Below, piece by piece: positions 9,231 to 59,832 of a stretch of 64,000 nucleotides of DNA. The notes beneath the pieces were generated by a model. The model ran no database searches and had not been told where the DNA came from. It saw nothing but the letters and a program-made list of their open reading frames with translations. A program made the position numbers and the translations under genes. Within the stretch, counting starts at the first letter, position 1. The number at the start of each line of letters is the position of its first letter. Source of the DNA: Nemertoderma westbladi (lineage: Eukaryota; Animalia; Xenacoelomorpha); NCBI GenBank assembly GCA_032718475.1, contig JAUCBJ010004074.1, positions 3,984 through 67,983 of the forward strand, in the 5' to 3' direction.

Positions 9231-9376
9231 GTGTATTGTAGGTGTAGAAGTGGAAGTGGCCTAGAAGGGGCTACAAATACTGTATGTGGATTATTTGTCC
9301 TATTGGAGACTTTGTCATAATGATTTGACATTCAATACCATCTAATCTGAGACTACCTGTGTATAGTGCCGCGAAC

Positions 9377-13644: not shown

Positions 13645-14810
13645 TATTCGCGCTTTCAGACCTTTGGCAGTTTAACCCGCCAAATTATGATGTCTTCTAG
13701 ATAATAAATCACTTTTAGCCTATGACAAGTATTTAATTCACTACACTAGTCGAAACCAATCTGTGCGCGATCATTCACCCGCTGGATATACCCGGGAGAT
13801 TGGGTTCGACGGCTTAATCTTATTGCTATGTAAGCTTAATGTATTATTCGACTGACAGTATTATATAATCTCTGACAATATTATTCACCTTCGGGGAATA
13901 TTAACAGTTCCTTTAGGACGTGGCGCTCTATCTATATAAACAGAGTTATGACTTAAACTACTCACAACGATATGGCTTAGTTATAATTCACATATATGGC
14001 GCATTCTTTAGGAAATGCTTCGTTATCAGTCTCACTCATACACAATGCTGCACAATACTGCACACTGATCTGCCGATCTTCACTGATTTTAGTTATATAT
14101 AAAAGGAACACGGACCGACTCATGTAGGGTCTATCAAATAACATTAGATTCACTTCAAACCACTTTAACATAAGTCACAATCGTTATATGTAACCTTTCT
14201 CTCTTACCTTCGGTATATCAAGAATATTGGGTTTCGGGGTTATTTATCGTTATTCCAAATATAATAATTCATCAACCATATTATGAAGAACTGACAGTAA
14301 ATAGCAGTATAACAATAGAAAGACCAAACATCAGTTTGATAAATCAGTTTGGTTTGTTTTGATAACGGATATATGTCCTTATAATTAAGCCTACTAGTGT
14401 TAGACTAAAACAGAAAAGCACAAAATATTTCCAAGCCGTTCTCTCCTGGCTCAGGACAGAAAGACCAACAACACTAAAAACTGATAAGAATAACCTTATT
14501 TACAAAATCTTCCACCCACCACAGAGAATGAGCATACAGATAGGAAAATTCAGTTCAGTAGATCTGTGATAGGTCGAAATCAAAACCAACTCAAATCCTA
14601 TTGGCAGATACAGAAAGCAGGGCTGTGGGGCAACCTTCCCAAGCTGGTTGGACGATCAAACGTAGCCCAGATCCCTTCGCACAGCAAATCAGCCAATCAG
14701 CCGGTAGCTTGCACTATTCGAGTTATAGATCCCTTTTTAGAGTATTCCAGCGCCTGGGGGGAACTGGTTAGCAAGGCAAACGAATCAGTTATCCCACAAA
14801 AGCTTTTACA
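13645..14810 (-). repeat. 3' LTR of A1 (1166 bp)
   Basis: Direct repeat of 35446-36611 with ~3 differences seen. Starts TGTAAAAGC on the - strand and is preceded by a purine-rich GGGAGCGG (PPT, 14811-14818). Confidence 0.97.
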
Positions 14811-17419: not shown

Positions 17420-17874
17420 TGTCATAAAATATATATATTCAAGTAGGGAAATAAAGTTAGTTTGTTTTCGTTAATGATTTAATGTTAATGTGCATAGTAC
17501 AGTAGTTGGCAACAGCAGGGGTTCATTGACATCAACTCATACATTATATCATTGATATACATACAGTATCGTCTATATTATTATCTATTGTTTGTACAAC
17601 GCTAGAATTACCTCATCGTTTGGACGACATGCCCCTGCTGTTCGTCCTAATTAAAAGGGTCAATTAGTATTGCTACAATAATAGGAGTATACATATAGTG
17701 TTGGTGCGGTGATGGTAAAACCAGTTGCTAATTGTCGTTGTAATATGTGTCATTTTTGTAAATAGTTAGTTAATTATTAAATTAGAGAAATATGTAATCA
17801 TAATATTGTGTTTTTTAAACTGTTCATGGGCGGTTCAACAATCAGAAGAATATACATTCATCCCGTTCATGACA
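17420..17874 (+). repeat. 5' LTR of element B (455 bp)
   Basis: Direct repeat of 24126-24576, with TG...CA ends. Confidence 0.97.
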
Positions 17875-17887
17875 TGGCGCCCGATGT
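17875..17887 (+). promoter_or_regulatory. Primer-binding site of element B (tRNA-Lys-like)
   Basis: TGGCGCCCGA directly after the 5' LTR, matching the classic tRNA-Lys-type retroelement PBS start. Confidence 0.8.
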
Positions 17888-18216
17888 TAAACGGCAGTAA
17901 TATTCAACTGGGTAAGTCAAACTTCATTAGGATTACAGAATCACAGTAATTATATTCAAGTTGCTCAATGGGTTGTTCAAAGATATTCAAGTTGCGTTGG
18001 TATCTTCTATCTAATTGCAACAACCAAGGACAATATGAAATTATCGAAATCTGTTAATGCAAATTAGCGTCAACTACAGTAACTTCATAAACGTCTGACT
18101 TACTCAATTGTACTGGTACGTTACAGTAAGCACCAGTGCGATGCAAAACAGGATTGCTTCTGTCGCTTACATATTAATTCACAGGTTCAACACAGGATTT
18201 CCCAACATCAGCAAAC

Positions 18217-21200
18217 ATGTCAGAAATGGACGGGGAATTAACACAACTCAAACGTTCTCGTGGAATACTACGGGGAAAAGTCACTAGAGCGCAGAAGAGA
18301 CTGAATACGCAACTTGACGAAGCTGAGAGGACAACATTGATGGAGACGTTTAAAGATTTGAATCAACGACTCTTAGAGGCCGATATGCAAATCGGTATAC
18401 AGCTCGAAGATGACGAAATGGAAAGCGATCTGGACTATTCAGATGAGTATCAAACAATAATAAACAATGCAATTGCTTTCTTACGCAAGTCTATGCCCAC
18501 CAATCAGCATCATGCTGGTTATCACTCAAATACCACACTCAATGAACCTAGTTTTCAAGGTGTACATAATTCAACAGAATACATGTCCCACTTATCTATA
18601 ATTCAAAATCAAACAGAAGGGAGAGTTTTAGCACGTTCAATGCTGTCCAAACTAAAACCCCCTACATTTGGTGGTAATTTGTTGGATTTCAAAGGCTGGC
18701 ATGAAGCATTTCTCACAGCTATTGATGAAGCACAGGTGCCTGATGTTATAAAATTTCAGTACCTACGTCAGAGTCTCAAGGGAGAAGCCCTTAAGACTGT
18801 TGGAGGGCTAGCAGTAAACGGAACTAATTATTCAATAGCCATGAAATTATTAACTGAAAGATTTGGCAATGAAAGACAAATTATCAGGGCACACATAGAG
18901 CAAATAAGAGCCATTAGAAAAACCAAAACAACGTTACGAGAAATTTATGATCATTGCCAATCGCATGCAAGGGCTTTAGAAGCACTAGGTGTTTCAACTG
19001 ACAAATATGAGCTGACAGTAGTTCCAGATGTGTTAGCTGCACTTCCAGAGAGAATTGCACTAAGATTTTGTCGTAAAAATAAAGAGAAAGTCGAAAACCT
19101 TGAATGGATAATGGAACAAATCAAGGGGGAGTTGGAAGTGTAAAAGCCTTTGCTGAATTGCCCCGTTATTTTTATTATCTTTTACATTAAAATACTCTGT
19201 AGTTGACATTCTAATTTGGCGGGTTAAACTGCCAAAGGTCTGAAAGCGCGAACAGGAAGCTCAGGAAATGCTATCCAATACAATAAACCCACCCCATTCA
19301 ATAGACACTTTGTTGAGCAGTGATGGCCAAAACAGCTATCAACAATCGGTAGAAACCCCCAATGCACCCTTTCGTGATAAACTTAAGGAAAAACACGTCA
19401 ACAGACACACATACGGCGCAACAGCTGCTAATTTTGTGGCTAGTGTAACAAATGATGGAAAGGCTCACTTAAATGCCCAGTCGAGCTCAGGTACAGCAAA
19501 ATTGGGATCAAAACAAACAATTGTACCACATTGTTTGTTCTGTAGACAAATTCATTACTCAGCTGATTGTTCGACAGTAACTGACCCTTTGGAAAGAAAG
19601 GAAATACTAAAAGAAAAAGGCCGTTGCTATATATGTTTAAGCAAAGAGCATATGGCAAATAAATGCCAATCGATAAAACAATGCAAATTTTGCAACAATC
19701 GTTTTCACCATCCTGCAATCTGCCTGAAACGAGGTGTAGGCCCACAACGTCAATCTACAGTACTTGTTACTTCAACAGAAACAACCAATACACAACTGGA
19801 AGTACCAAAACCTACAAATATTACGTTGTCATCCACAACAAATTCTAACACAACCTTACAAACGGCGACTATCAATGCATACGATGACCAAAATAACGTT
19901 TTTACTATCAATTCTTTGTTCGACCCCGGCGCTCAACGCACTTTTATTTTACGGGAAGTGCTCGAACGACATTCATTAACAGTGATAGGAAGTGAAGTAT
20001 TGGCACCGCAAGGTTTTGGATCAAGTGCAAAAGCTTCGGAATGTTTCACAATTGTTGAAATAAAATTACAGTTGAGGAATTTGGAATTTGGAACAATTAA
20101 AGCATTAGTTATAGAAAAGATTTGTGATCCAATCTACAACATGGTTCCACATAACGTTATAAAACAAAGTAAAACGCTAAGCTCTCTGCAATTAGCAGAC
20201 GCAACTGTAACCAATGCTGCATTGTTTAAAATCGAGCTTTTAATAGGTGTTGACGAGTATTGGAACATAGTTTCTGGTTCCATAATTCGGGGCGCCCAAA
20301 ACGAGCCGGTGGCCATAGACAGCGCCGTGGGCTGGTTATTATCCGGCCCCGCATATATCCCTGACTACGAGGAAACTCTTGTAATCAAATCGAACCAACA
20401 CCTTTCCCCATCAACCACCTTAACGCTTGAATCGCGGTTGATTGCAAACCAATGCGTTGACATCGGTGACTCAGTTAAAGATCCTGAGTCACAAATTCTA
20501 ACTATGTTAAAACTATTCTGGTCCCTAGAGTCAATCGGAATTACAACACTTGGCGAAGAACTCAAACCCATAATAACTGACATTAAATTCAAAGAGGGAA
20601 AGTACGTAGTTCGTTTACCATGGAAGTTGGATCCATTCCAATTACCAGAACACTACCATAGATGCGCTACTCAACTGAAATCACTCATAACGAAATTGTC
20701 AAAGACTGGGTTGTTGATTAGCTACAATGACGTCATTGAGGACCACTTCAGTAAAGGGTATGTTGAGCTAGTCGATATTACGCAGCCGACTACCAATCCA
20801 ATTCACTATGTACCTCATCATGGGGTAATAAAAGAAACACGCCAGACAACAAAACTCAGAGTGGTATTCAACGCGTCAGCTATAGACACAAAGTACGGCA
20901 TTAGTTTAAATTCATGTTTAAATTACGGTCCTAATTTCTTACCATTATTGTTTCAAGTATTAGTACGTCTTAGAACCAACCGCATTGCAATAGTCGCTGA
21001 CATTGAAGCAGCATTTATGCAATGCGTAATACATCCTGACGATAGAGATATGCTACGTTTTCTTTGGGTTAAAGACATAAATGACATCGATGTAAATAAC
21101 CCAAAATTGCAAGCATATCGCTATACGCGGGCGATGTTTGGACTCTCGCCATCACCAGATATTTTATTTTCTATTGTCAGGAAACATTTACAAAGTAAAT

Positions 21201-23926
21201 TAGATACTGCCAACGAAAACAAACGTATTGTAATTGAAAAACTATTGCGGGATATGTATGTAGATGACTTTGCGTCTGGTGCAGACACTGTGTCGTCTGG
21301 TCTTCTCTTGTATGAGAATGCAAAGCAATTGATGTTAGAGGGTGGATTTAATTTAAGAAAATGGCTTACAAATTCTGTCGAGCTACAACAAATTATAGAT
21401 CAATTTGAAAAACCCAAAATCGTAAGTTTAAAAACAAATTCTGTACCAATATTATCAGAGGAAGACCAGACGTACGCAAAGGAGTCATTGTGTTTATCAA
21501 CACCACCTAGCGGTGAAACAAGGATTTTGGGACAAGTGTGGGATATAAGTAAGGATTACTTTGGGTATAACCTTGACCACGTCATATCCTTTGTTAAGAA
21601 TCTAAAACCAACGAAAAGGGCTATATTGCAACTAACGGCTCGGATCTACGATCCATTAGGGCTTATATCTCCCTTTTTAACGCCCTTACGAATCGTATTT
21701 AGGGAATTAGCTAACAGTAAGGTAGACTGGGACGAACCACTACCTACTCATTTATTGAGCAAATGGGAATCATGGTTAAACAGTTTAGAAATTTTAAATA
21801 GCATTACAGTACCTCGATGTACAAACTTACTATGTAGTAAAGTTAAACTGGCACCTAAACAAAAACAATCAGTACCACGGTTAGAATTACTTGGCGCACT
21901 AATACTGGTAAGACTAGTACTGTTAGTGTATCAAGGTTTGGTACTACAAATAACACGTTCAGTATTTTGGACCGATGCATTAGACGTACTGTATTGGATA
22001 CGACCAACAAATAATACTCACAAACAATTTGTACACAATAGAGTACAGGAAATCCGTGACGTAACACAGAAATTGGGAGCAGAATGGAGGTGGTGTCCAG
22101 GGCCGTGTAATCCAGCGGACATTCCAACAAGGACAATGGCACCAGACAAATTATTAAATAACAAACTATGGTATGAGGGTCCAGACTTTATATCGGGGGA
22201 GGAATCTGGTTGGCCAGAGTCACCAGTGATTACTGAGGCTCAAGTATCCAAGTGTGCTCTGTTAGATATAAAGTCCACCCTCATAATGACAACGACAATT
22301 AAGACAATCAATACAGACGATACAGGATTATCTCAGATAATTAATGTAAATAATTTCAGTACAAAAAGGGACGTACAACACAGAATAGCTTGGATTCTAC
22401 GGTTTGTAGAAAATATTAAAGCAAAACGTTTACACAAAGACCCCGTGTTATTACCATACTTAACAGCCAAGGAACTACATTTAGCCGAAATTAAAATAAT
22501 TCTAGATTCACAACGTGTAAACTATTCTCGGGAATTGTCTTATCTTCGTGATAAATCAACTCAGTGTCCTAACGTTGTTAAACAATTAAATCTTGTGTTA
22601 GATGAATTAGGTATTATCAGATGTCAGGGTAGAATAATCAATGATACTATCCCATTCCATACCAGAAATCCTATTCTTCTTGCACCAGGTGACCATTTTA
22701 CAAAACTCGTCATATTAAACTCACACGAGCGCGTTTCACATTCCCGAGTGAGAGACACACTAGTAGAGGTTCGTGAGAGATTCTGGATACCATCCGCTAG
22801 ACGGAAAATTCAACAAATTTTGTCTTCGTGTGTCATTTGTAAAAGGTTTCAAGGAAAACCCTATACAATGCCAGCAATCAGCCCCTTGCCAGTTTCTAGA
22901 ACGATTGAAACGCGCGGCCCCTTTGATCATTGCGGAGTCGATCTTTGTGGACCACTTCATACAGTTGCCAAACCAACCGAGACCGAGACTGAGACAATAC
23001 AACCAACAGAAAAGGCGTGGATTGTTATGTTTACGTGTGCTGTAATAAGAGCCGTTCATTTGGAAGTAGTAACGTCTTTATCAGCGGTCGCTTTCATTAA
23101 CGCATTTCACAGATTCATAGCCAGAAGAGGAATACCGAGTATTATGTTTAGCGATAATGCTACAAACTTTAAGCGCAGTGCCAAGGAGCTAAGAGCGTAC
23201 CGAATATTCTTGACAGATCCTGAGGTAGTCAGGATTTTTGGAGATCATAATATTACCTGGGAAAACAATATTGCAAACAATCCAGCAGCGTATGGATTCA
23301 TAGAACGTTTAATTGGCACTTGCAAATCCGGAATTCGTAAGTTAATAGGACGAGCTGTCTTATCACTTGACGAGTTACATACTGTTGCGCTTTCGGTAGA
23401 AGCATCAGTAAATAGCAGACCAATCACATATGTTTACAGTAAGTTAGATGACGATGTACAGCCTCTCACCCCGAGTCACTTTCTTGTAGGAAAACGGCTC
23501 TGTGCAATACCAGATTTATCAGATAAAGGGATTCTACCAAACCCTGAATCTAAATCTAAATCGGCAAGAAGAATGATACTTGATAGGGTTAAATATCAAG
23601 AGGCAGCGAAAAATTCAGTGTGGAAGTTGTGGCGTACAGATTATTTGAGAGAGTTACGTTCTTCTCACATTAGTAACAACGTAGCCCCCAAATCAGACAT
23701 CATCCCGAAGGTAGGCGCTATGTGTCTATTACATAACGAGTCTATTCCCCGTTGCATGTGGAAGTTGTGTAGGATAGATGAATTAATTGTTTCAAGGGAC
23801 GGCCGTGTGCGGTCTGCGAGAATTTCAATAGCGCCCAGAAATAAGGAAGCGAGATCACTCGTTAAATCCATACTACAATTATATCCATTAGAGGTATCTA
23901 CTACAAATACACCACAAATAGATTAA
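18217..23926 (+). pseudogene. Gag-Pol of element B, interrupted by a 116-bp insertion and missing part of RNase H
   Basis: Pao Gag (KPPTFGG..KFQYLRQSLKGEA), three Cys/His knuckles, protease LFDPGAQRTF, RT YVDD, integrase H..H/CVIC, DLCGP, SDNATNF, ERLI. The frame is restored if 19139-19259 is removed. Confidence 0.93.
19139..19254 (+). mobile_element. 116-bp miniature solo-LTR of family A
   Basis: TGTAAAAGC...GGTTAAACTGCCAAAGGTCTGAAAGCGCGAACA are the family A LTR ends. TSD GGAAG at 19134-19138 and 19255-19259. Confidence 0.93.
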
Positions 23927-24125
23927 AATAGTCATAAAGAAATACAATACGAACATTCTTCATACTTTATCATATTTGAAAATTATAATGTGCAATTAAT
24001 TACACTAAACAATATAACATATTGTTTACTGTATATTAGTCATTTTTTGAAATTTTTTAAATGCAATAATGTATAACCCCACGTGGTGAAGGTTATGATT
24101 TGAAACTATTAGTTTCAAGGGGGAG

Positions 24126-24576
24126 TGTCATAAAATATATATATTCAAGTAGGGAAATAAAGTTTGTTTTCGTTAATGATTTAATGTTAATGTGCATAGT
24201 ACAGTAGTTGGCAACAGCAGGGGTTCATTGACATCAACTCATACATTATATCATTGATATACATACAGTATCGTCTATATTATTAACTATTGTTTGTACA
24301 ACGCTAGAATTACCTCATCGTTTGGAAGACATGCCCCTGCTGTTCGTCCTAATTAAAAGGGTCAATTAGTATTGCTACAATAATAGGAGTATACATATAG
24401 TGTTGGTGCGGTGATGGTAAAACCAGTTGCTAATTGTCGTTGTAATATGTGTCATTTTTGTAATTAGTTAGTTAATTATTAAATTAGAGAAATATGTAAT
24501 CATAATATTGTGTTTTTTAAACTGTTCATGGGCGGTTCAACAATCAGAAGAATATACATTCATCCCGTTCATGACA
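24126..24576 (+). repeat. 3' LTR of element B (451 bp)
   Basis: Preceded by the PPT AAGGGGGAG (24117-24125). Confidence 0.97.
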
Positions 24577-25028: not shown

Positions 25029-28000
25029 TTAAGTTGGGGAGTCCCTAGATGTCGGTTGGATTAGGGAAGTGGTCGTGGGAAGAGTTTCTTGCCTTCCATA
25101 GTTTCCGGAGAGCTCTCTGTCTCTTTCCAGTAAACATAAACGACCCACTGGGCGATTGAGCTGTTGAGTCTCAAAGACTATCCCTGGTTTCTTAAAGTTA
25201 CGTCGCATGACGACGAGTTCTACTGATCGCACCAAACCATCGCTCGAGATATGAGTCTCGATGATACGTCCTGTTTGCCATCGCTTACGTGGGAGATCGG
25301 GGTCCACAATAAGCACCATGTCTCCAGCGCTGACGTTTTCTTGCTGCGCAAACCACTTAGTTCGAAGTTGTAGAGTGGGCAGGTAATGTTTCTCGAAATG
25401 GTCAGCGAAACGACGGGATAGCAACTGCATAAGTTGCCAGGTTCGACGGCAGTACTCGTCTCCGTCTGAGATCTCCGATCGTGGGAGCATGGCTACGGGT
25501 TTCTTCAGTAGAAAGTGCGCGGGTGTTAGCGCTTCCAGGGAATCAGGACTTGAAGAGACTGGCATGAGCGGTCTTTCGTTGAGATAAGCGGCGATTTCCT
25601 CCATTAACGTCCGCAATAGTTCGTCGGTGAGATAAGCGCGACAAGGCACAATAAAGTGGAACGCAGTCTTCACGCTTCTAATCAATCTCTCCCAACTTCC
25701 TCCCCACCAAGGGGCGTCGGCGGCGTTGAAGGTCCAGCTAGACGCTGTTATCTTTAGTTGATCGTCCACCTGTCTTTTGTTCCAGTCCTTTACGTAAGCT
25801 TGAATTTCGTTGTTGGCGCCAATGAAGTTCGTTCCCTTATCTGATCTCATCGTGTTACTGGTTCCGAAACGAGCAATCTGTCGTCGTAAACTCAACACGA
25901 AGCTGTTGGTGGATAGATCGTTTACCATATCGAGATGGATAGCTCTACAAGTCATACAAACGAAGATGACACACCATCTCTTAACTATAGTCCGGGCACG
26001 ATATACTTCAATAGGGCCAAATAAATCCACACCGGTATTAGTAAAGGGTGGTTCATAAAAGCTTACTCTTTCCCTAGGTAATTCTGCCTCTCGCTGTGTC
26101 AAAGGCCTACTGAATGCCTTCCTACAGGGTATGCAGTTCCTAAGGACTTGGTTCAGAGCCCTACGGGGTTTATAAAAATAGTAGCGAGTTCGAATTTCGC
26201 TGAGAACTCGTTCTCTTCCAGCATGATACAGTTTGCTATGAACATCTACAATCATCTTGATTTGTATGTCAAGATTTCTAATGAGTATGGGAAACTTAGT
26301 GTCAAAGGATAATGGGGCGTTGGTAAGCCTGCCTCCAACACGTATTAACCCATCTATCATGGTACTAGAGAAGCGATCCCTTAAGCGCATCTGCGGATTT
26401 CTTAACAACAGGAAATACTTATCGGAATCCTCATAGCATTGTAGGAGTCTCAGCATCTGTTTGTTGGTTTCATCATGCTCCTGGTAACTGATCTTCTCCT
26501 TTAGAAACCTGTCGGATATCTTGTATTTAGGAAGATCTTTAACAACATGGACTCGTGCAGATGTTGATGGAGCATCATCACTATTGGTCTTTGTCCCGGA
26601 GTAACGATGATGAAAACATCGTTTTAAATAGGTGACGGCTTTACAGAGCCGATTCCAGGAACTGTAGTGACGTATCGCTCTCTGCAAGAGGGGTGAGAGT
26701 CCTTGCGCGATATCTGGTATTCCAGATTTCCAATCCTTGTCACGGATTTCCAAGACTTCTTTAGTCGTGGCGGTGGGTTTCTGATCCAAAGCATCCTCTC
26801 CGGAAGTAAATAATACAGATAGATCAACCGCAGGTTTAAACAACTTCGATTTACTCGCTCGAGTTTTGGGTTTAACTTTCTCCGCTCCCTTGGCCTGTCT
26901 GATCTCTGCTGTTGTGAGATGGGGAGGCCATTCTTCTTCTTCTTTGTAGAGAAAGTCGGGTCCACCTAACCATTCGGGAGTATTTACCAATTCCTTTGGA
27001 GTAGCTCCTCGGGAAGCGATGTCTGCTGGATTAATCGTTCCGGGGCAATGTCTCCATTGGTCCATCGTCGTGCGACTAAGTATGATGGCTACTCTGTTGG
27101 TAACGAAGACGCTGAACTGACAGACTTCATTGGTTATATACTCTAACACGAGTAAAGCGTCGGTCCAATAGACAGTTTTCTCTAATGGATAGTCAATCTG
27201 TTCGGTTACATTCCGGCCGATGGCTGTAGCGTATAGAGCCGCTTTTAACTCCGCTCGAGGAACTTTCAACTTGTTGTTGATTAATGCCTTAGAAGTAACC
27301 AGGGCGACTTTGATTCCATCCGGAGTTTCCACTCTTAGATAGGCTACTATACCTATTCCCATATCGCTGGCGTCTCCAAACACATGGAGTTGATAGGAAT
27401 ACGTAGGGAGAACATGACCAAAATATGAACGGGAAATTATAAAATCCTCGATAGCCGGCAGAGAATCTTCCCATTTCATCCACTTCTTCAATAATTCTCC
27501 CTTAAGTGGATCGTCCCATGAGTGGTTTTCAAGCCACATTTGTTGTACCAAACTACGAGCAATCAATATAACTGGGCTAATAAATCCCAATGGATCGAAA
27601 TAAGTGCTCAGTATACTTAAGCAAATCCGTTTGGTTCGAACTGGATTATCTCGCTGTTTTAGCTGGAAAAACAGGATATCTCGCTCTGTGTCCCATTTCA
27701 AGCCGAGTGTCTTGGTTTCTGGCAGATCATCTTTGATCAAATCTAGATCTTTCGCCCCTCGATCTTCCGCAGGGATCGACTCCAGAAACTCACGGGAGTT
27801 GCTGGTGAATTTCGTTAATCGAAACCCACCTCTTTTTAAGCACTCTACCGTTCCTTTAGCGACCTCAATGGCTTCCTCAACTGATGGAAGGGACTTCAGA
27901 TTGTCGTCCATGTATATGTCTCTCTTGATGTTGTCGATCACTTCCTTAGAGAAGGCCTCTCGGTTGTCCTCTGCAGTGGTACGCACTACCGAACAGGCGT

Positions 28001-31000
28001 TGGAAGGGCTTGAGATTATCCCAAAGGCCTGGATGGTCATCCAGTACTCCACCGGTTTCTGGTTGAGGTCTCCTTCGGGCCACCACAGAAATCGTAGACT
28101 ATCTCGATCCCTATCTAACACCTTGACTTGTAAGAACATGCCTTCTATATCGGAGGCGAAAGCAATCGAATATTGTCTCAATCTTAAAAGAATTCCCAAC
28201 AAAGATTGAAGCAAGTTGGGTCCGGGTAACAATTCAGAGTTAAGGGATTGACCCATGTAAAGAGCGGAGCCATCAAACACTACTCTCACTTCATGTGGTT
28301 TACCGGGTTTAGGAACGTAATGGTGAGTTAAGTAATACGTTCTTTCAGTCACAGGTGTTTCTTCCGGTACTCTCTCCGCGCATCCCTTACTAATAAATTT
28401 CTCCAGCTGTGTTTGATACATTGCTTTAGCTGAAGAATTAGCCGTAAGGCGTCGATGGAGTTGCGCGATTCTTTTTTCCGCCAAGGGTCTGTTATTGATG
28501 AATTTCGGTTCTCTCTTGCGGAAAGGTAGACCGACTTCATACCTACCTTGATCTTTGAGGAAACGTGTAGTTGTCTCTTGGATCTGCTTGGCCCTTTCCT
28601 CTTCCACTGACAAGGCTTTATCGTAGGAATTGGGCTCTACCGCCTCTTGCGTAAAGAATCGTACGGCATGTTCATCTCGAGTCTTGGCATTACAACGCTC
28701 AATGACGTCATTTAACTCTTCGTTATAAGCTTCTCGTTCAGTTGGATAAAGAAGTTGACATAAGTTCACTTGGTTTTGCCAAGCCTCGATTTCCTTAAGG
28801 AGGTCGATGGTATTCTCCTCATCAAAAAGCTGGTGCACGTCGTCGTTATCTGAGGAGTATGGGGTTCCCTCAGTTAAATCGTCTCCCTCACTAGTATCAT
28901 CTTCCCATTCACTCACCTGGTAGACGCGATCTTGCGGTAGTCTTTCTCTGAGTGTTCTACGGGAAGGGCCAGTAAAGTACCAACCTACTCTAGTTCTTAC
29001 CGCATAGGTCTGTAGTGGCTGCGGTTGAGCAGGCCGTTTCTCCAATGTCTCCAGCGCCTCATGCGCGTTTTGGCCGAGGAGTATTTGCACTCCAGGATAA
29101 TCAGTCTGGAATCGAGGTATCTTAAGATGTTGGATGCTCTCATCCTCGTCCCAATTATAAAGGTCTACTTGAGTAGTAGCGAAGTTCTTTATAGCCACCA
29201 ATTTCACTGACCTTATGCTATGTTCTCCTAGTTCGTCTTGTGGGGTGGACAACGCGCCTACATAATAATCAGCTGTTACTGTAGATTTCCAAACTTGCAT
29301 AATGCCTGACATATTTAGCTTGGTTCGGATCTTAGGTTGTCCAGCGAAGATGTCTTCGGCTAGTTCTTTATCAATGAATGTTCCTGTGCTGCCGGAGTCC
29401 AGGAGGGCGTTCACTATATAGCTTTTCTGAGGTCCATGGACCCGTAACTGGACTACAGGAAATTCTCGGATTCCTACATTGGAAGTTGGTGCTTTCCACG
29501 ATGGTTGTCGCTCAGAAGTAGTTAGAGTGAAGTCGCTGTCTGTATCTTTTTCATATGTGAGTGCTCGATACACTGCGGTATTTATCATGTAACAGGATTC
29601 GTTTTCGTCGGAGAACTCGTCCGTATAGAATCCTTCCATCTCAGATTGATCAGTGTCGTTCACATCACTGAATTGGACATGTAGTTCGGAATCACTTACC
29701 TGATTAGGACTATTTCGATCGAATTCAGCGTGCAACAAGATATGATGTTTCGCACCACACTTTGCACACCTTATGTCTGAGTAACAGGTTCGCCGTTGAT
29801 GTCCTTGTCTGAGGCAATTATAACACAACCGCTTGTCCCACATGACTTCACGTCTCTCAGTTAATGATTTCTTTAGAAATTCATCACACATATTCAAACG
29901 ATGGGTCCCATCACATAGCGCACATTTTGGTTTGATGTTACTCACCTTAATCTGAGTCACATTGTGCACACTTGCCTTTTCTTTGGGCTTTCTCACCTGA
30001 ATTCTCTTGGGAGACGTAGGAGGAGTTTTTCTTACCTGTTCTCTCCTGTCATTTGCTCGAGACTTGAATTTACTTACCTGATCTTTAGGCATTTTATTGA
30101 CATAATAAGATCTATCAGTGTCTTTCCCGCTATCTTCTCCTTGAGAAGTCTGGCTTTCGCCGTCGTCTGTATAACACACTGGTGTTACCTTTCTTCTGGA
30201 GACGGGTTTTTCACTTACCTTGTTTTCCGGTGTCTTCTCTCTGGACAGTTTCAGGAGCTGTAATTTCACTTCTCCATCTAGGAATGACATGAGATCAGCC
30301 ATGGTAGGGTCTCGTCGTTGTTGTTCCATCATATATAACACTTTCTTATCCCAGCGTGTACCTACTCCACCCTTCGGTAAAGTAGAAGCCACTGCTCTAA
30401 TAACCATAGTGTTCTGATACTCATGAGACTTACCTAGCCAATCTAATTGTCTGCAGATCTCCTGGATCTCATCGGAAAACTCGATAATCCCGCTGCTAAT
30501 AAACTTTCGGGGCGCTACTAACTTTGCATACAAATACCCAGCGATGTTATTCCTATTACCATACCTGATGTTTAATGTATCCCAAACTTGTCTTAATCCG
30601 TCTGGATGTCCAATAAACTTTAACGCCATTAACTTGGGAGATCCTTCCAAGCACTCGATGAGGTATCTAAGTTTCTCTCCATTAGATAGTACAGAGTTCT
30701 GTATGTTATCTTTGTAATATTCATTAAAAGGTAACCATTTCATCTCATCCCCATTGAACTTGATGATCTCTCCCACCTTCACCGCTTGCCGGGCTTCGGT
30801 TCTAGCCATTTGACACGTAAAACTTTCTTGGGCCATCGTGTTATTTAATATCGAGTTATCGGTATATAAATTTCTCGGATTATGATCAGGTCTATAGGGA
30901 ATGTCATTATCAACAGGTCTATAATTACCCTTAATAGGGTTCACTATAGGAGTTTCTACTTCGCTAGCAGTATATATGCGTGTAGGCTCCACACCTTGCG

Positions 31001-33182
31001 CATGAGATACTTCAGACCTAACAGGTTGACACATTGTTACCGAGGGTGGTGGTATACCCTTTTGAGTATTTACTAATTTATCGCATTCTAGCGCGATACT
31101 TTGCTGCACTTCTTGCAACTCTAGTCTACTTTCCCTTACTGTGCCCTTGAATTGCTGAACAGTCTCCTGCATCTGCCCGAGCAGGAGATCCATCCCCCGC
31201 TGTCTCTCGTCCACCCATTCGACCGCCGAAGCGGGAGTCGCCAACGTTGTAGCGGGCGGACGAGGGACCACGGGCGACAAATCAGGAATATTTCGCTCGG
31301 GATCCAGGACCTGAACTGTCTCCTGGGCAGTTCTACTGGGCACAGGTAGCTTAGTGCTATGTAGAGGGAATTTAGAGTTAGCTTAAGGGAGCACAGGTGT
31401 GTCTATCACCGAAGGGGTGATTTCAAAAACAGGCCTAATTATTTCAGGCTCATCTACTATAGTAGGGAGTCTTTCTATTTTAATTATTTGGTCTGTAGGT
31501 TCTGTACTACCTAAGTTGGTGTTATTTAGTTGCCTTCTAACAGCTGGAGGCAAATCAGGCAATTTCTGACGGTGGAATGTTCTTTTACGTCTACTTAGAC
31601 GAGATCTATTTCCCTTGCCTTCAGTATCGGTGGTATCGCCTTCCTCAGATGATGTATATCCCTGTCTTTTGGGAGTAGATCGATTCATCATCTGCATATT
31701 ACTAGCTGTTAACTGTTTATTTATGCAGTCTTGATTCTCCTGAATGTTTTCCAATTCTAATTGGGTGGTTTCTTCAGTCGCTCTCCGTTCGGCTTCTGCC
31801 ACTGCCTCTGCGGCCTTTCTTTCAGCCTCGGCCGCCTTTGCTTCTGCCGCTGCCGCTGCCGCTTTTGCCTCTGCCGCTGCCTCTGCCGCCTTTGCCTCTG
31901 CCGCTGCCGCTTTTGCCTCTGCCGCTGCCGCTGCCGCTTTTGCCTCTGCTGCTGCCTCTGCCGCTGCCGCTTTTCTTTCTGCTTCTGCAGCTACCACTGC
32001 TGCTTTCTTTCTGTCTTCTATACGTTTTTTCTTTACTTGTTCCTCCTGGACTCGTGTGATGCGGAGTTGTTCATCAAATTTAGCCTGGTTCGCAGCCCTC
32101 ATTTCCACATCGATGGCATCCAACACAAGCTTGGTTCCTTCACTATTAGGGCTAAGTCCCTCTAACCTTCTCCTCAACTCGTCATCACCTAAAAAACGTT
32201 GATAGTCTGACAGATAGATGTCAATGGCATCCCTCTTATGCGGCTTCTCTGCCGTCGCTTCACTTTCCACTTGGGAAAAAGTAGCGTCTGTTGATTCTCC
32301 ATGGGTTGAGCGCTCCTCTAGCTGAGCTTTCCACTGAGCTGTTCCTTGAACCTGGAGACTCACCCTTTGAAACCAAGTCTTTACGGCAACTTGCAACGAC
32401 GTGTCTTGTCTTCGTTTAGAAGCTTCTTCAAAGGCCGATAAAATTAGCCTGATTCGCAGAATTCTTTCTCTAACTTGATAAAGCAGTTGTCCCTGCTCTT
32501 GAGGTCCTTGTGGTTGTTGAAACAGTTGTCCTTTTACTCGCTCCATAGAGCTGAAGAATCCCTGTGCGTATCCGGCTGCGGACCTCTTCCACACAGCTGG
32601 ATCTATAGTTTCCTTGGCTACTCCCATCCGGTGTATGTCTTCCCAGGCAGCTTCTGATAAATCAAACGGGAGTCCGGGTCCGGGGAAGTTCCATTGCGAC
32701 TCGACAATAGACTTCAGTTCTTCACTCGTGTATCCCGCATAATTATCTTTAGTTGATCGTTGACTTCTCGCCCAATCGATCTGGTGTTCTTCCACTGCAA
32801 TCAATAACCTAGTGAGTACGGCTGCAGGAAGGATGAGAAGGGGATCCGAATAAACCGCTTCCGTCATCTTTGCTCCGCGCTCGGGTGTCAGCTCTACAGT
32901 ATCCTCACTACTGGAGCTGTTGGGCCGTTGAGAAATAAGTTCTTGGCTAGCGGGTTGTTGCTGTTCTGCTGCTTCTTGGTCCCGCTTGACCTGAGCTCGA
33001 GTGCCTATGATAGACCTACGATGTTGGACCAGCCTAGGTTCTGTTATTACTACTGGAGGGATGACCTTCCTCACAGTGGGAGGTGAACTGAACTTAGGTG
33101 TAGACGGTTCTACACCTTTATCTGAGTCGCAGATAGTTACATCCAATAAACTGTCTGACAGGTTCTGCTTAGTATCAGACAT
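25029..33182 (-). CDS. Gag-Pol polyprotein of A1 (~2,717 codons) with one in-frame TAA at 31383-31385
   Basis: ORFs 33182-31383 and 31343-25029 share a frame, and A2 has GAA at the stop. Motifs: Pao Gag (KFNGDEMKW..KLRYLIECLEG), knuckles CALC/CYNC/CAKC, PR LLDSGS, RT YMDD, RH HVFGDAS..RAEL..WTD, IN H..H/CIPC, DLFGP, SDKGTNF, WERLI. Confidence 0.93.
31785..32005 (-). repeat. Ala-rich (A)EAKAA coding repeat in the Gag N-terminal extension
   Basis: gccgctgccgcttttgcctct-type repeats; shorter version in A2 at 46200-46295. Confidence 0.9.
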
Positions 33183-34541
33183 GTTTGTTTACACAGTTGA
33201 ATGTCTACCGCTATATTACAGTCTAAGCAAGTCTAGTAATTCAGTGTTAACTGCTAGCCTAGTAATTAATTACCGATACTGCTACTCAGTGTAGCGTGAT
33301 ATATATATAATATATTAGAATACCGGTATGCTTATAGTATATATAACTATATAAGTACTATTACAGACTAGGTTTATCACAGAATACCGGTATAATTTTA
33401 GCACAAATATATATAAATATATAATAGGCCTATCGGGAATACCGGTATACAGCTTACAGTTTGTAGTATATATAATTCTGGACTAGAATTAATTACAAGT
33501 ACCGGTATAATTTCAGCCTAAGTTTATAGAAATAAAGATAATAGGCCTATTGTAAATACCGGTATATCAATTATTTTAAATAACTGAATTTCTGAATTTC
33601 AAGGGTTACTTGGTTACTTTAACTTACTTTATTACCGTTATTTAAGCAGTAGTCCAACTGATATTGAGACCTAATTGTTGTATGGCAGGCCTACTATTTA
33701 TAAATCGTTAGATTTGATTTATAATATATATATACCCGTTTTAATGGGTTTTGTCAATTGTTTGAAATAAATGTTATTATTTCTGGGGAGTAATCACTAC
33801 ACAAAGCGGTGCGCTTTCAGTGAAGTGTTACTTATAGGACACTAAAACAAATAATACTAATTTACCTAAGTTACTTAATACTACAAATTACGTACAATTC
33901 GGGTGAGATTACAATCTCTAAATAAACACAAAAATTTACAAAAAACACAAAATCCGAATTTACAGGGTAATTTTACAAGAAGTCTACAAACCAGCCTAAC
34001 AAAGGGTTAGAAATCTGGTTATTACAACGGACAGGGTACTGCGGTATTTGAAAATAATACGTAGTAGTAAATACACTGCGTTGTCCAGATAGGAAAATAC
34101 CACCGCCTGACGACCTATAGCCGTATCGCTATAGGTACTACGTTATGTATCACGGAGTGTTCCTACCTAGAAGTTAATAGAGCTAATCGAACGTGCCTAT
34201 CAACCACTTTACAACACAAATATAATGCCTACACTAATTACTTTCGGAAAGCACTGTACACTAAACCCTAAATTAGGTACGAGTACTTGTACAACAGATA
34301 ATCAGTAGTTAAATATACTTGAACAGCTAAAAGAACCACGGCATCTGCTGGAGTGACCGATGCACAAAATCACCAGTCTTTACCTACGCCAAGCAGCCCG
34401 TGTAGTACCGGGGTTAATTTAACTATAGCGGTATGTATAACAAACACAATTACTGTAGGAACAAACTTGGGGAATGAATGTTGCGAATAATCGCATAAAC
34501 TCTGAATAATAAATATTACGCTATGCGTAAAAACCACTCAA

Positions 34542-35080
34542 ACAAAATGCAGACCAAATACTGACAGACTACCATCAAGCCTAAACAAACTACGGTATAT
34601 GCAGACTCCGAAATGATTAGGTAGTATGCGTTCTAACCCAGTAGTACGACTTATTCTTTAGTTGGGGGTTTACCTTACAGCAATGGCTGCCCCTACTTCC
34701 TAACCGTTCTTTATCGGACAGATGCTTTACACACACCGAAATCCGTTCAGACCTAATAGCAGCCAGACAACTATCCAGCCTACAAATTATCTAAATAAAT
34801 ATTATACGCTACCCGTACAGACTACACAAACAAAGTACAGACTAAACGATGGCAGACCACTCTCAAGCCTAAATAAACTACAGGACATGCAGACTCCGAA
34901 ATGATTAGGTAGTATGCGTTCTAACCCAGTAGTACGACTTATTCTTTAGTTGGGGGTTTACCTTACAGCATTGGCTGCCCCTACTTCCTAACCGTTCTTT
35001 ATCGGACAGGTGATCTACACACACTGCAATCCGTTCAGACTTAACAGCAATCAGACAGCAGCCCAGCCTACAAATTGTCT
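34542..35080. repeat. ~288-bp tandem duplication in the A1 leader
   Basis: Near-identical core gcagactccgaaatgattagg...tttatcggacag at 34601 and 34889. Confidence 0.9.
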
Positions 35081-35433
35081 GTACAATATGATCAGGCTTA
35101 CACGCCTTCTGTTCAATACTGGCCTACAAATAAATAAAACTGACAGAAATAAGTAAGCTCCAAAAGAAACAAGGGGTGTAGAGTCCCTAATCTCTTAAAC
35201 AGCCTACCGGTATACAATAATCAAATCGAATAATACTAATGTACTTATACAGGAAGTACCGGTTAGGACAGTTAGGCCTACGGACCTACAGAAGTACCGG
35301 TTCTGGCAGTTGGACCTACGGACCTACGGCAGTACCGGTTCTGGCAGTTGGGCCTACTGACCTACAGATGTACCGTTCAGGTTTACCGGTTGACCGGTAC
35401 TTTCAACTGTATTGCTTACTGCAATAAAGAAGC

Positions 35434-35445
35434 TATATCCGTTAT
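35434..35445 (-). promoter_or_regulatory. Non-canonical PBS position of A1 (ATAACGGATATA), complementary to its own LTR
   Basis: Directly follows the 5' LTR terminal CA and has no TGG. It is the exact reverse complement of the element-strand 12-mer at 36174-36163. Confidence 0.6.
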
Positions 35446-36611
35446 TGTTTGCGCTTTCAGACCTTTGGCAGTTTAACCCGCCAAATTATGATGTCTTCTA
35501 GATAATAAATCACTTTTAGCCTATGACAAGTATTTAATTCACTACACTAGTCGAAACCAATCTGTGCGCGATCATTCACCCGCTGGATATACCCGGGAGA
35601 TTGGGTTCGACGGCTTAATCTTATTGCTATGTAAGCTTAATGTATTATTCGACTGACAGTATTATATAATCTATGACAATATTATTCACCTTCGGGGAAT
35701 ATTAACAGTTCCTTTAGGACGTGGCGCTCTATCTATATAAACAGAGTTATGACTTAAACTACTCACAACGATATGGCTTAGTTATAATTCACATATATGG
35801 CGCATTCTTTAGGAAATGCTTCGTTATCAGTCTCACTCATACACAATGCTGCACAATACTGCACACTGATCTGCCGATCTTCACTGATTTTAGTTATATA
35901 TAAAAGGAACACGGACCGACTCATGTAGGGTCTATCAAATAACATTAGATTCACTTCAAACCACTTTAACATAAGTCACAATCGTTATATGTAACCTTTC
36001 TCTCTTACCTTCGGTATATCAAGAATATTGGGTTTCGGGGTTATTTATCGTTATTCCAAATATAATAATTCATCAACCATATTATGAAGAACTGACAGTA
36101 AATAGCAGTATAACAATAGAAAGACCAAACATCAGTTTGATAAATCAGTTTGGTTTGTTTTGATAACGGATATATGTCCTTATAATTAAGCCTACTAGTG
36201 TTAGACTAAAACAGAAAAGCACAAAATATTTCCAAGCCGTTCTCTCCTGGCTCAGGACAGAAAGACCAACAACACTAAAAACTGATAAGAATAACCTTAT
36301 TTACAAAATCTTCCACCCACCACAGAGAATGAGCATACAGATAGGAAAATTCAGTTCAGTAGATCTGTGATAGGTCGAAATCAAAACCAACTCAAATCCT
36401 ATTGGCAGATACAGAAAGCAGGGCTGTGGGGCAACCTTCCCAAGCTGGTTGGACGATCAAACGTAGCCCAGATCCCTTCGCACAGCAAATCAGCCAATCA
36501 GCCGGTAGCTTGCACTATTCGAGTTATAGATCCCTTTTTAGAGTATTCCAGCGCCTGGGGGGAACTGGTTAGCAAGGCAAACGAATCAGTTATCCCACAA
36601 AAGCTTTTACA
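35446..36611 (-). repeat. 5' LTR of A1 (1166 bp)
   Basis: TGTAAAAGC...GCGCAAACA on the - strand; direct repeat of 13645-14810. Confidence 0.97.
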
Positions 36612-38302
36612 CGCAGGATAAATAATCTCAGATGTTTGGAAGTAAGACGCAAACTACGAAGATACGCAGTCTTTGAAGTCTTACATCAGTACGAACAACA
36701 CCAGACAGACCGGGTAACGATCAAACCATACTGGGATAAGGACATCCGACAAGTGGGAGCCTAGACATAGCCCGGTCTCAGTCTTATTACAAGGCGGGGA
36801 TGAATTCCCCAGGATGTAAAATTTAATGTAAAACTAACAAAGAAGAAATCCCGAACAAACGATTTTCTTTGCAATAAATGGCTCTCAGAACTCCAGACTT
36901 ACAGTATAACTGTATATAGGCTGTATATGCAGTACATGAAAGCTTGGTTAACATATCATTGCTTTCGCCGTGAGGACCAGCCTGCGCACAATCTTGAGGT
37001 TTAGCAGCCTCATAGAGAAAATAAGCATGGTGGACGGCCCACTTTCGGAAGACGTCTCCTAAATGACACTGGCCTTGAAGATTCGGATAATCTCGCGAAA
37101 TGTCATTGCAAGCCGGCATAGCATTCTTAAATAATGTACGTATTCTTAATATATTTTGCGATACGTTTTGTATTTTCATTTTCTATTTATGATAATTGGC
37201 AATTTTGTAAAAAATAATTCAAAATTAAAAAAAAATGAAAAACCCATGTTTCTTCAAATTTTTCATTAAAAAATGGGGAAATATTATGAAATCAAGAAAT
37301 CTAGTCAAAATTTATTGAAGCTTGTGAAATTACCTTTCATATAAATAAAAAATTGCAAAAAACGGTTAACGGGTTTTATCTCCCCTACGGTGTTATCTTA
37401 TTTTGTACATGTCTCCAATGTGGTTGAAAAATGCATAGAGAAACGATACCATAGGAAAGGGGATCATCAAAGTACATAAAAATTTGAAAAAATAATATTT
37501 TTTGGAGCCCCCTAGCGGCCTTTGTATGATTTAAAAAATTTCACTAAAAAGACTACTTCTCCGTTATTTTCCATTTTTATTTTTCGATACCACATTTTAG
37601 GAATTTTGGGGCGGGGGGCGCCGGCGGGGGGCGCCGGCGGGGGGCTTGGAGGCTACCCCTCTAGGTGCAATAAAAAACAAATTTCTGTAATTATTAACGA
37701 GGCGGGATATTTTCGCACTTGATCAGATCATTAATAAATATACATCTCTCTCCAGGGGAAACTCGACGCAACAGTTAATTGCTCTCAAAAATAAAACCTC
37801 TAACCTGTTCTAATGAGTTTCATTTATTGTTATAGTTAGAATATAGTGCCACTAATAACCTGCTCCTCTCCCTAAATAGAGAATTTAACTTAATTAATTT
37901 AAATATATTAATTCACCGATTGGATTTGTGTACAGTTGTTGTCCTCCATCTCTAATAATCGGTATTGATCGAGTGTCTGCCAATGTTTGTCTCAACTCAG
38001 TCTGTCAGTAGGACTCATCTCAAAACTATCCACAGTTGTTAGACCTACAGTGTTAGACCTACAGGTATTACTGTATTAGGCTACCTGCAAGGACTACTAT
38101 TATAGTAGTCCTTGGCTACCTGCCATACCTGCCTACCGCAGTACAGCAGTACCGGTACTGAAGAAATACTGAAATATACTGCAGTACAGACTGTACTACA
38201 CCACACCACAACTACTGAACTACCGCAGTACCGTTCTGCCGTTACCGGTACCAAACAACCAGACTTCATTCATTCACATTCTGACATTGCAGCATTGCAG
38301 CA

Positions 38303-40164
38303 ATGGACCCAGAGCAACTGGAACGAGAGTTCGAATGTTCCGTATGTCTACGACTTTTACATCAGCCACGACTTTTGATCAACTGCTCCCACTGTTTCTG
38401 TTACAAATGTATCGTAAAATTTTCTAAACAACGCGGTGATGGATTTTCGTTGGAATGTCCTCGTTGTCGGAATCCCACCGAGGTAGAGAAACTGGATTCT
38501 TTGCCGACAGTAAGTCATGTCGTCACCATGATTGATATGATTCGAAAAGAAAAAACATGCGACGAGTGCAGAAAAAACAAAGGAACGAATCCCTGCGAAC
38601 GTTGCGATACCGAATTGTGCAGAAAGTGCGAACCTTACCACGTCTGTGACGTCAATCCACCTAATTCGGGAGCAGCTGGAGATCCGACGGGATGCTGGTC
38701 TAATGACGTAGATCTCGATAAACAAGGAGCTGTTGGTGGATCTAAAGAACCGGATCCCGAACTGTGCCTAACCCACGGTCTAAACAAACGCCATTATTGC
38801 GAGAAATGCGAATGTACTGTTTGTCGCCAATGTCATTCCGTTGACGGTGTTTCTAAAGATCACGAGGTCGGGTATACGAACAAAGTCTGTAATTCAATCA
38901 GACGAAACTTAGTAGAAGGTCCGGGAAAGTTGAGATCACGATTGGAGACTAAACTATCGGTGTTGGAAGGAATTCTGGGGGATTTAGACGACGTCACTAA
39001 AGTTTCCACTGACGACATCCGCAAACACTTCCAATATTTATACAACGAATTAAAAGCAGCCGAAGATACAATGATGAAGCAGGTCCGGGATTTAAAAACC
39101 AAAACGGCGGGAAAAATATCAGCAGCGCAGGAAATTCTCGCTAATATCGAAATTCCTGAAGAAAACGAATATTATAAGAAGATAAAGAATTCCGAGTTGA
39201 TCAAAGAAATAGCGGAAGCCAAGAAGATCCTAAAGAAATACAAAGAAATCGAGCAGCGGATTTCTGAGATCGAAGTTGTAGAGGTACCGGAAATTCGTTT
39301 CGTTCCGGTTGAGTTACAGAAGGACCTGGAAGGGATTACTGGCCGCGTCGATATTATAGAAACGATTCCCTAACTAACAGGATTTATATTTACGAATTCA
39401 ACGACGACGATTCTTTATCTTTACGTGGTCAACCTATTATTCTCGAATCCGACTGCAACGCCGAAAAGAAACAGATTAAGTTTCTAGATAATTACTACAA
39501 GGACCCCTGGATCGCTAATAATCACTACGGGGCAACCTGGATCGCCGCAACGGAAGAATGTGTATTTGTAATAAACCCAGACGGAGGGGATGTCAAACAT
39601 TTGTGTCTTGGTAAAGAGAGATACCGCGGTCAACCAATAGGCCCAATGGTCGGTATCTATGGTGATTATCTGCTAACGTCAAACAACTGCGTGATTAAAC
39701 TGGACCGACGCGATTGTTCTAAGGAATGGATATCCCGTATCGAAGAACCTGGGAAACTCCTTCCCAGCGATAGCTGTAGTTTTCCACTGGGCCATTTAAC
39801 CGTCGGATTATTCCAACCTAACGAACATAAGTTATCCATATGTATCTATCCCGTTACCGGCACCGGACCCAACGTTACTCTCGTATTGGATAGAAGGATA
39901 TCCGTTCTTGATTGCGGTAAATCCATCCCTATTGGGGCGATGGAACTACTGGATTATCCATCATGGCATTACTTAGTTCCTCTAGAAGAAGAAGGGAATC
40001 ATTATCTGGGGATTTATAAATACGTTCCAAGCGGAACTAAAGTATCCCGATTGGGTGCCGTGCCAGTAAACGGGTTCGGTGGGATGGCTGTTGTGAATAA
40101 TAATAAAGGATTCATTCTGTACGAAACTCGTAGTAACAGTTTACTTTATATTAAATCTAACTAA
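38303..40164 (+). pseudogene. TRIM-type gene copy 2, frameshifted by a ~195-bp internal deletion; could still encode a 356-aa RBCC-only protein
   Basis: Near-identical to 191-1894. The junction at ~39360 lacks the equivalent of ~1254-1447. The C-terminal frame continues to 40164. Confidence 0.88.
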
Positions 40165-53531: not shown

Positions 53532-54331
53532 ATAATAAAATTTACGGGAATAAATTCTAATTCATCTCTTTTAATGAATTTGATAAATTGTCATTTTATA
53601 CAATTTATAACATTCCCAAAATTCCATTAATTAATAGATCATGGGAGCGGAGATTCACCCTATTAAGTGTATTAGTGTGCGAGAATCTCCAATAGATAGT
53701 CAATAGCCGATAAAATTTATAAAATCATGTATAAAGGGGATATTGACAATTAAAGAATTACTATTAAATAGCATCCCAGATCTGTATGCATGAGAATTAC
53801 CCTAATTCTACTGCTAGCTTTCCATAATGTCACCATAGCAACAACCACGCTAGAATTAGAAGTGAGTTAAAAGAACAATAGAAAGCTTGCCCCATTGAAT
53901 AGCATAGGGAATAAATAGCACACTGCTAGTATCCAAGGATACATAATAATAACGTGGCATTCTGGAAGGCACTGACTAACGGACAAATGGCCCGAATGTG
54001 TACAATTTGTGACAGTTGTGTGGAATTTGTGCGTTTATAGGTGAATGTTACTACTAAAGTGTGTTTACAGTAGCGAGTCGCAATTGTGAAAGTAGCCCTA
54101 ACTCTGCCAGTAAGAACCTGAAGTAAATCTAAGCCTTTGGGACGGACAGTGGAGTGACTTGTGCCGGTTATCGTTGTCGTTGTGTAGCTACTACGTTGGC
54201 GAAAAACACAGCGACGACGGTACATCGGCGCTGAGGATCTTGCACTGTCCGGGGGCAGAGAGGGGTAGGCAGCGACGCCCGCTAGCCTAAATATAAACTT
54301 ATTATAATATTAATAAACTCATATAGCAGAT

Positions 54332-58661: not shown

Positions 58662-59832
58662 TGTAAAGGCTTTTGCGGAATTAGCTAGTCATTTTCCCCG
58701 AAAAGTACTCTGTAGATGTTTTAACGGACATAAAAAGCCGTTTCCTTACTGTACCGGTGTTTTAGTGGACATAAAAAGCCATTTTTTTGTATGTGTACTT
58801 TAGCGGACATAACTAGCGATTTTATGTCGCAATACGCCAAAATACTCTTAATACAGTGTAGTTCAGATTACGACATCTATCAGCTGATTTAGTGTACTCG
58901 TGGAGCTTTCTTTGTTTGGCTCAGCCAATCAGAGCGATTTTCATTTTATTTGCACAGAAGCCTCCGGGAAATCGCGCAATGCATGATGGTTTATGTTTAC
59001 CTTTTTTCCTAATGCCAGAACATCGGCTGTGGAATTATCCTATGTTTCAGACTTTAGCCAAACATTAGAACGGCTTTGATTATAGAAACGTATAACTGTT
59101 ATCCTGTCATCCTGTCAAACTTCATAACATAACATATTGTCATATACAAACACCGCATTATTTTACTGCTATTTACTGTCGGTTATTAATTGTATCAGTT
59201 GATAGAATATTGTTATATTTGGATAATATCGATAAATAATCATAAAACCCCATCTTCTTGATATACTGAAGGTAAGAGACCGGTTACATATAGCAATTGC
59301 GACTTACATTATATTGGTTTTGGAGTGAATCTAATGCTATTTCATAGGCACTACATGTGTCAATTGCTGTTCTCTTTATATGTGACTAAAATTAGTGAAG
59401 GTCGGCAGATTGGTATGCAGCATTGTGCGGTAGTGTGCATGAGTGTGACTGATAACAAAGCATCTCCTAAAGAATGCGCCTTATACGTGAATCATAAGCC
59501 ATCCCGTTGTGTTTAGTATAAGTCATAACTCTGTTTACATATTTAGAGCGCCACGTCCTAAAGGAACTGTTAATATTTCCCGAAAGTGAATAATATTTGT
59601 CAGAGATTATATATTAACGATCAATCGAATAATACAGTAGGCCTACACCGCAATAAGGTCAGAGCTTCCGAATCCAGTCTCCCGGGTAAATCCAGCGGGT
59701 GAATGGTCGCGCATAGGCTGGCTTCGGCTAATGTAGTGTATCAAATACTCGTCATAGGCTAAAGTCGATTTATAACCTAGAAGACACCTAAATTTGGCAG
59801 GTTAAACTGCTAAAGGTCTGAAAGCGCGAACA
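58662..59832 (+). repeat. 3' LTR of A2 (1171 bp)
   Basis: TGTAAAGGC...GCGCGAACA. The 3' ~60% aligns with the A1 LTR; the 5' part is divergent. Confidence 0.93.

Follow-up and report, generated by a model that had tools for sequence, protein, structure and literature searches.

Elements of the Belpaoviridae are described in their ICTV profile as primed by host tRNA, with an 18-nt primer-binding site (PBS) and a length of 4.2-10 kb (PMC8742986). The locus described here raises the question of how reverse transcription is primed in a Bel/Pao element that has no tRNA-type site behind its 5′ LTR. The window, that is, the whole stretch of 64,000 nt analysed, contains the minus-strand LTR element A1 (36611-13645) with a second element, B, nested inside it, and a third element, A2. 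It is built as a tandem segmental duplication (1-37411 versus 38150-64000, ~94% identity), and the insertion sites of A1 and A2 differ between the two duplication units. Each unit opens with a RING-finger open reading frame (35-1894 and 38285-39373). Tandem arrays (30-bp multiples; 38-bp unit) are found at 3363-4344, 9369-10941 and 59833-60705, and the insertion of A2 lies within the 38-bp array.

A1 is flanked on both sides by the target-site duplication CTGCG (36612-36616 and 13640-13644, minus strand), of which the duplicated segment has a single copy at the empty site (63165-63169, minus strand). The 5′ LTR (35446-36611, minus strand) is 1166 bp long with TG...CA ends and, read from 36611 to 35446, terminates ...GCGCAAACA. 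The 3′ LTR (13645-14810, minus strand), immediately preceded by a purine-rich tract, ends in GAATA and thus terminates ...GCGCGAATA instead of ...CA. With 3 differences per 1166 nt between its LTRs, a 5-bp target duplication and an empty site, A1 is a young, recently inserted Bel/Pao element. The LTR end was fixed without using the PBS match, based on the CTGCG duplication, the single CTGCG of the empty site, the end of the A2 LTR and a mini LTR flanked by GGAAG. The ending CAAACA given in an earlier note on this DNA applies to the 5′ LTR, but not to the 3′ LTR; moreover, nt 1162, an A in the 5′ LTR of A1, is G in 98% of the depth of run X1. Two of the three differences between the LTRs fall in the final 5 nt (35446-35450, 13645-13649; chance ~5.5e-5), adjoining the putative priming site; errors in copying the terminus, decay of CpG or a wrong assembly may account for them.

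Once element B is subtracted, A1 is ~15.8 kb long. Its gag-pol frame (25029-33188, minus strand), interrupted by one in-frame stop (31383-31385), contains DUF1759, the Pao Peptidase_A17, an integrase zinc finger and DUF5641 according to Pfam, as well as YMDD and the acidic motifs FGDAS, RAEL, WTD and NPADI, which we take to be RNase H sites. This domain set is Pao-type, in a Ty3-like order, and places A1 in the Bel/Pao lineage; the same Pfam families were found in the best 120 of 160 relatives, with an identity of at most 44%. The LTRs agree with this assignment in their TG...CA ends, target duplication and purine tract, except that the 3′ LTR of A1 ends TA. In domain content and order, the 1.17 kb LTR, the purine tract and the 5-bp duplication A1 resembles the Belpaoviridae, but it lacks an 18-nt tRNA-type PBS and is longer than the 4.2-10 kb of the profile (PMC8742986). 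Searches of metagenome, viral and genome contigs with the exact LTR-end patterns of family A, to which A1 and A2 belong, gave 0 matches, and no relatives of the family were found in viral contigs.

The position of the PBS (35434-35445, minus strand) is occupied by the 12 nt ATAACGGATATA (35445-35434), which start at offset 0 and thus abut the 5′ LTR. TGG is absent at offsets 0-5, and A1, though of the Bel/Pao lineage, therefore deviates from the ICTV profile. The earlier note had stated that a tRNA PBS is missing and that these 12 nt have an exact complement in the element's own LTR, 437 nt from its start. Both statements hold: the complement, the putative self-primer, is at LTR nt 438-449 (36174-36163, minus strand) and again in the 3′ LTR (14373-14362), and the match ends exactly at the LTR edge. 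This match exceeds chance. A 12-nt match at offsets 0-3 was obtained with 20 of 20,000 Markov-simulated LTRs, and within the interior of A1 a self-match of at least 12 nt occurs at 4 of 10,839 positions, the PBS itself being one of the four. The duplex has -13.3 kcal/mol, and in folds of 809-867 nt with four start points all 12 pairs had a pairing probability of 0.83-1.0. Lengthening the duplex by 5 bp on the upstream side of the 12-mer is not significant, since 600 of 2000 random upstream 17-mers equalled it. A U5 helix (nt 1043-1052 with nt 1150-1161) and a hairpin (nt 1127-1148) adjoining the PBS are predicted from folding at 35451-35569 (minus strand); of the changed pairs in this fold 7 of 10 are kept versus ~57% expected, which is not significant. 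ARAGORN found no tRNA gene in the window, and Rfam gave no match in 33000-37000. Element B (17420-24576, plus strand), a distant Bel/Pao element, serves as internal control and indeed has the tRNA-type PBS ascribed to it before, a TGG-type site at 17875.

Self-priming is described for Tf1/Tf2, Tj1, Tosmo1-3 and the Tf1/sushi group of the Ty3/gypsy chromoviruses, and as in that group the PBS of A1 adjoins the 5′ LTR, complements the own LTR and is not accompanied by a tRNA site (PMC4600332; bioRxiv 10.1101/2022.12.06.519325). Yet A1 is not a member of Tf1/sushi: it has Bel/Pao domains, and a chromodomain gave no Pfam match. Its loop of 717 nt is another difference from Tf1. Of the two flanking duplexes in the three-duplex 'pretzel' of Tf1, the one on the U5 side is predicted for A1 and the downstream one is not, which counts against self-priming. 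In Tf1 the RNA's 5′ end serves as primer, a placement that for A1 is one of several candidates. A1 would work like Tf1 but belongs to the Bel/Pao lineage, not to Tf1/sushi. Likewise inferred by sequence alone, and outside fission yeast, is the self-priming predicted for the TAR lineage (Houba, Osr-1; plant Ty1/copia) and the gypsy element Tcn1, but these belong to other superfamilies and other hosts (PMC6317226). In the accessible portions of the literature, we found no publication that describes Bel/Pao elements as self-priming or as using a primer made by splicing. For the Cer7 element of C. elegans, a tRNA-like primer encoded by the element was reportedly proposed at one time; this would be a different kind of precedent. 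The words 'PBS' and 'tRNA' are absent from the available parts of PMC554778 and PMC3118150, and those of PMC3601003, PMC5445492, PMC6934838 and PMC11042837 add nothing on Bel/Pao priming.

Judged by its sequence, A1 probably uses a segment of its own RNA, and not a host tRNA, to prime reverse transcription. By analogy to Tf1, the 12-mer would pair with the PBS in the element RNA, the RNase H of the element would cut after U449 (AU|C; after 36163, AT|C, in the DNA), and extension of the 3′ OH released in this way would yield ~717 nt of minus strong-stop DNA. As to where the 12-mer would be placed, we prefer the RNA 5′ end, as in the Tf1 geometry, and give this option about half of the weight. 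Alternatively, the 12-mer may be internal to the RNA and follow a TTTAG at nt 406 that resembles a splice acceptor, or it may be part of U3 and supplied by a 3′ LTR, if a TATA-like motif sets the start.

A2 is a 5′-truncated relative in the duplicated segment, and its 5′ LTR and PBS are absent from the window. Its 3′ LTR (58662-59832, plus strand) carries TATAACTGTTAT at 59091-59102, the equivalent offset noticed before, and this indeed aligns to the A1 12-mer; the last 5 nt of the 12-mer and the following C are preserved, and pairing with the A1 PBS involves one mismatch and one wobble (-6.4 kcal/mol). That the A2 12-mer is a perfect partner of neither known PBS counts against self-priming. 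The 12-mer is part of a conserved island (LTR nt 401-450; 36162-36211, minus strand) that is common to subfamilies with unrelated flanks: A1 and A2 have an identity of 0.70 in nt 401-450 versus 0.30-0.48 in nt 51-400 and 451-500. In a survey of 36140-36236, contigs of four runs retain 36162-36201/36211 and then diverge into unrelated sequence on both sides, and no variant of at least 2% is listed within 36162-36201, where changes near contig ends go unlisted. The downstream edge is at 36162, one base past the 12-mer, in X1, X5 and X4 (among the 19 of 37 loose contig ends listed). The depth in X1 is 202,339 at 36164-67, 14,145 at 36156-59 and 136 at 36140-43. A fall of contig depth inside the island had been considered a sign of covariation and was dropped, because the depth profile has the shape of a symmetric tent, which overlapping short contigs are expected to give.

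With the 12-mer at the start of the RNA, the island would combine a core promoter, beginning at ~-37, with the primer. The leading alternative, which we consider unlikely, is that the pairing is real but not that of a primer: the island would be a core promoter or the helix a long-range leader fold, and a host RNA, e.g. a tRNA fragment, would prime. It is favoured by the TATA-like TTATAAGG (36178-36185, minus strand; not the TATAWA consensus) 10 nt before the 12-mer, with which transcription could begin at ~nt 456-460 and thus past the 12-mer. However, a promoter alone does not suffice to explain an island whose boundary is one base after the PBS complement, nothing Inr-like is common behind it, and the missing TGG in A1 speaks against a tRNA site as well. 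The upstream edge of the island is marked by a pyrimidine tract ending TTTAG (36206-36222, minus strand), which resembles a 3′ splice site; upstream of this tract no strong splice donor was found. A strong 5′ splice-site motif, GAAG|GTAAGA, is present at 36003-36012 (minus strand) and kept in A2 (~59268-59277); it might be used to make a subgenomic RNA from which gag or ORF3 is expressed.

Other family-A copies were listed in seven runs, none of them on record as RNA and all consisting of contigs, so that depth is not copy number and transcription starts are not visible. For the PBS, the region surveyed was 35100-36700 in four runs, and 40 of 172 variants are listed, the others being below ~55%. 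Among those listed, PBS position 1 is changed in 46-62% and position 5 in 59-65% of the depth of X1-X3, and in X4 83% of the PBS depth is changed at these two positions. Altogether, ~60% of the family-A PBS depth differs at positions 1 and 5 and fits neither the A1 nor the A2 LTR; A1's letters are found in ~40% of the depth in three runs. One X4 contig has both changes and no other listed change within the 12 nt. The two-change PBS pairs with the A1 12-mer at -7.3 kcal/mol and with the A2 12-mer at -0.6 kcal/mol. This common variant, unexplained by either LTR, counts against self-priming, and its poor pairing is a further point in favour of the priming by a host RNA outlined above. A partner change at 36167 is not listed in the four runs, in which changes near contig ends go unlisted. 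The partner predicted for the change of position 1, a T at 36163, is present in one X5 contig (depth 125) with three further differences, so within family A the covariation of PBS and primer amounts to one contig and one position. In X4 the contig with the two-change PBS has a depth of 16.6, the A1-type PBS 3.5 and the A1-type island 8.5, and a contig of depth 15 has other sequence across the island. These values, which are depths and not letters read, fit a covariation in which copies with the variant PBS have a different island. The PBS predicted for the A2 type is absent among the 40 of 172 variants listed, variants below ~55% being outside this set.

Further evidence comes from related families. 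On independent DNA, 637 matching stretches led to 80 loci that were kept. In 12 families the LTR end was fixed by direct repeats, and nine of these pair with their own LTR, eight across a predicted splice junction and one contiguously. The junction matches comprise 11-15 nt under a strict splice rule, four of the eight families (F1, F2, F11, F12) being close kin; the contiguous match, in L076, has 10 nt. F8 and F10 reach 7 and 9 nt under the strict rule and 11 under looser ones, and L025 (F6), a close relative, has a TGG-type site. Two of the three families whose LTR ends were placed by eye, guided by the match (F7, F9, F15), pass the strict rule. When PBSs and LTRs were mismatched, 12 of 272 pairs reached 11 nt, all among F1, F2, F11 and F12. 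A blind scan of nine loci with known LTR start, two of them from families counted already, gave at least 10 nt in eight (one false) versus 15 of 72 cross pairs, and at least 11 nt in six (one false) versus 4 of 72; a 13-nt match in L053 was counted as false, as it was located beyond the LTR of that locus. Of 17 further loci, eight have a direct repeat. L087 and L088 have 11-nt junction matches each and differ in two junction letters and in the two matching PBS letters. These sister families (L087:1000-1790, L088:1000-1882) thus show a compensatory double change, that is, covariation. L083 and L085 have matches of 11-12 nt, but no independent evidence fixes their LTR ends, the more distant L092-L094 are TGG-type by eye, and L090 is not an LTR. 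The 17 Bel/Pao loci L081-L097 were found in prokaryote genome bins and are most likely animal host DNA that remained there.

The relatives L002, L008, L034, L063, L077, L087, L088 and others are like A1 in having a non-TGG PBS at offset 0-5, a self-complement of 11-15 nt and a primer ending in AC or AT; over all relatives the primers end there or one base beyond, mostly before C/G, like that of A1. A TATA position shared upstream of their donors was not found. Most relatives tested are self-complementary with letters of their own, which speaks against the non-primer explanation, whereas the TGG-type sites of L025 and L092-L094 speak for it. The splice-junction families have ~38-44% identity to A1 in the RT-RNase H region, and a complement arises in them only when the LTR is joined at a GT-AG junction, the LTR introns being predictions from sequence; the complement of A1 is contiguous, like that of L076. 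Family A further differs by a much longer LTR and leader and by ORF3. In trees, which were calculated without reference elements of the named clades (BEL, Pao, Tas, Suzu, Sinbad, Dan, Flow), family A is nearer to the related families than element B is. A sister relationship between family A and the spliced clade, which would make the contiguous form ancestral, is unproven (FastTree 0.947/0.999, but IQ-TREE 57/34 with 34 of 107 sequences). L025 (L025:1-80) falls among junction families such as L047, which has a 15-nt junction match; this may reflect a reversion, a recombination event or chimerism of the contig. L076 (L076:5870-6070) is nested among junction families with strong support and has a TTTAG acceptor-like site upstream.

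With the junction signature being the rule among relatives, one may ask whether family A also uses a splice-junction primer, nt 438-444 joined to nt 854, and whether the PBS of A1 is the footprint of the unspliced primer. The variant PBS indeed matches this joint of the A1 LTR over 12 nt. We nevertheless regard this as improbable: the best match of A1 is contiguous and the variant fits a weak donor only, GTTATC, which is followed by unrelated sequence in different subfamilies. The acceptor word needed arose by chance in 13% of simulations, A2 is without such a match, and the joint is absent among the 15 of 17 joints listed, which are from contigs (X4 as RNA is a guess). Finally, we regard it as equally improbable that the match is a chance product or a private, functionless inverted copy from one lineage. 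For this reading speak the ~1/1000 random LTRs that match likewise, the many elements scanned and the mutation-prone LTR/PBS junction, where two of the three differences between the LTRs of A1 are found. Against it, A1's letters make up ~40% of the PBS depth in three runs, the 12-mer is common to subfamilies in four runs and the same logic recurs in the relatives.

The earlier proposal of a self-priming Bel/Pao lineage thus gains from the geometry of the match, from a conservation that ends one base past the 12-mer and from the self-complementary, non-TGG PBSs of the relatives. The link to an ORF3 exonuclease that was proposed along with it is unsupported. ORF3 of A2 (54317-58584, plus strand) consists of two overlapping frames with ~1,400 codons, most of which are missing from A1, including the exonuclease-like part. 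None of the 80 related loci matches ORF3 though many have the self-complement signature, and ORF3 is therefore not needed for it. The exonuclease-like identity, next to two CCHC parts, is a lead only: the exonuclease gave no Pfam or PDB match, the first frame no homologue, and the second frame one credible homologue whose first match in the Atlas was DNA_pol_A_exo1 plus CCHC (0.86); another candidate homologue was a repeat artefact. The 116-bp family-A mini LTR in element B (19139-19254, plus strand), whose duplication GGAAG fixes the LTR ends of the family, has family-A ends and a middle part of its own, sits in the reading frame of element B and may be a solo LTR left by a small non-autonomous partner. 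The final 7 nt of the 12-mer, CCGTTAT, occur in it, with no alignment linking them to the island.

Taken beyond family A, the data lead to the assumption, for which we see even chances, of a wide animal Bel/Pao branch without tRNA priming, most members of which would splice an intron from the LTR to build the primer, family A and L076 being intron-free. Under this reading family A would represent a simple, Tf1-like version of self-priming that evolved independently, and priming in its relatives would be tied to host splicing. The ICTV profile states host-tRNA priming for Bel/Pao elements (PMC8742986). A self-primed branch would add one more independent origin of Tf1-type priming, now in a third superfamily and in an animal where the copy number is high. 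Annotation tools that demand a tRNA PBS would overlook such elements, and the question of primer use is open to plain mapping of RNA and cDNA ends. Neither the supply of tRNA nor silencing via 3′ tRNA fragments would affect the elements themselves, and the contiguous primer in family A next to the splice-built ones in its relatives would be a natural series on the evolution of primer use.
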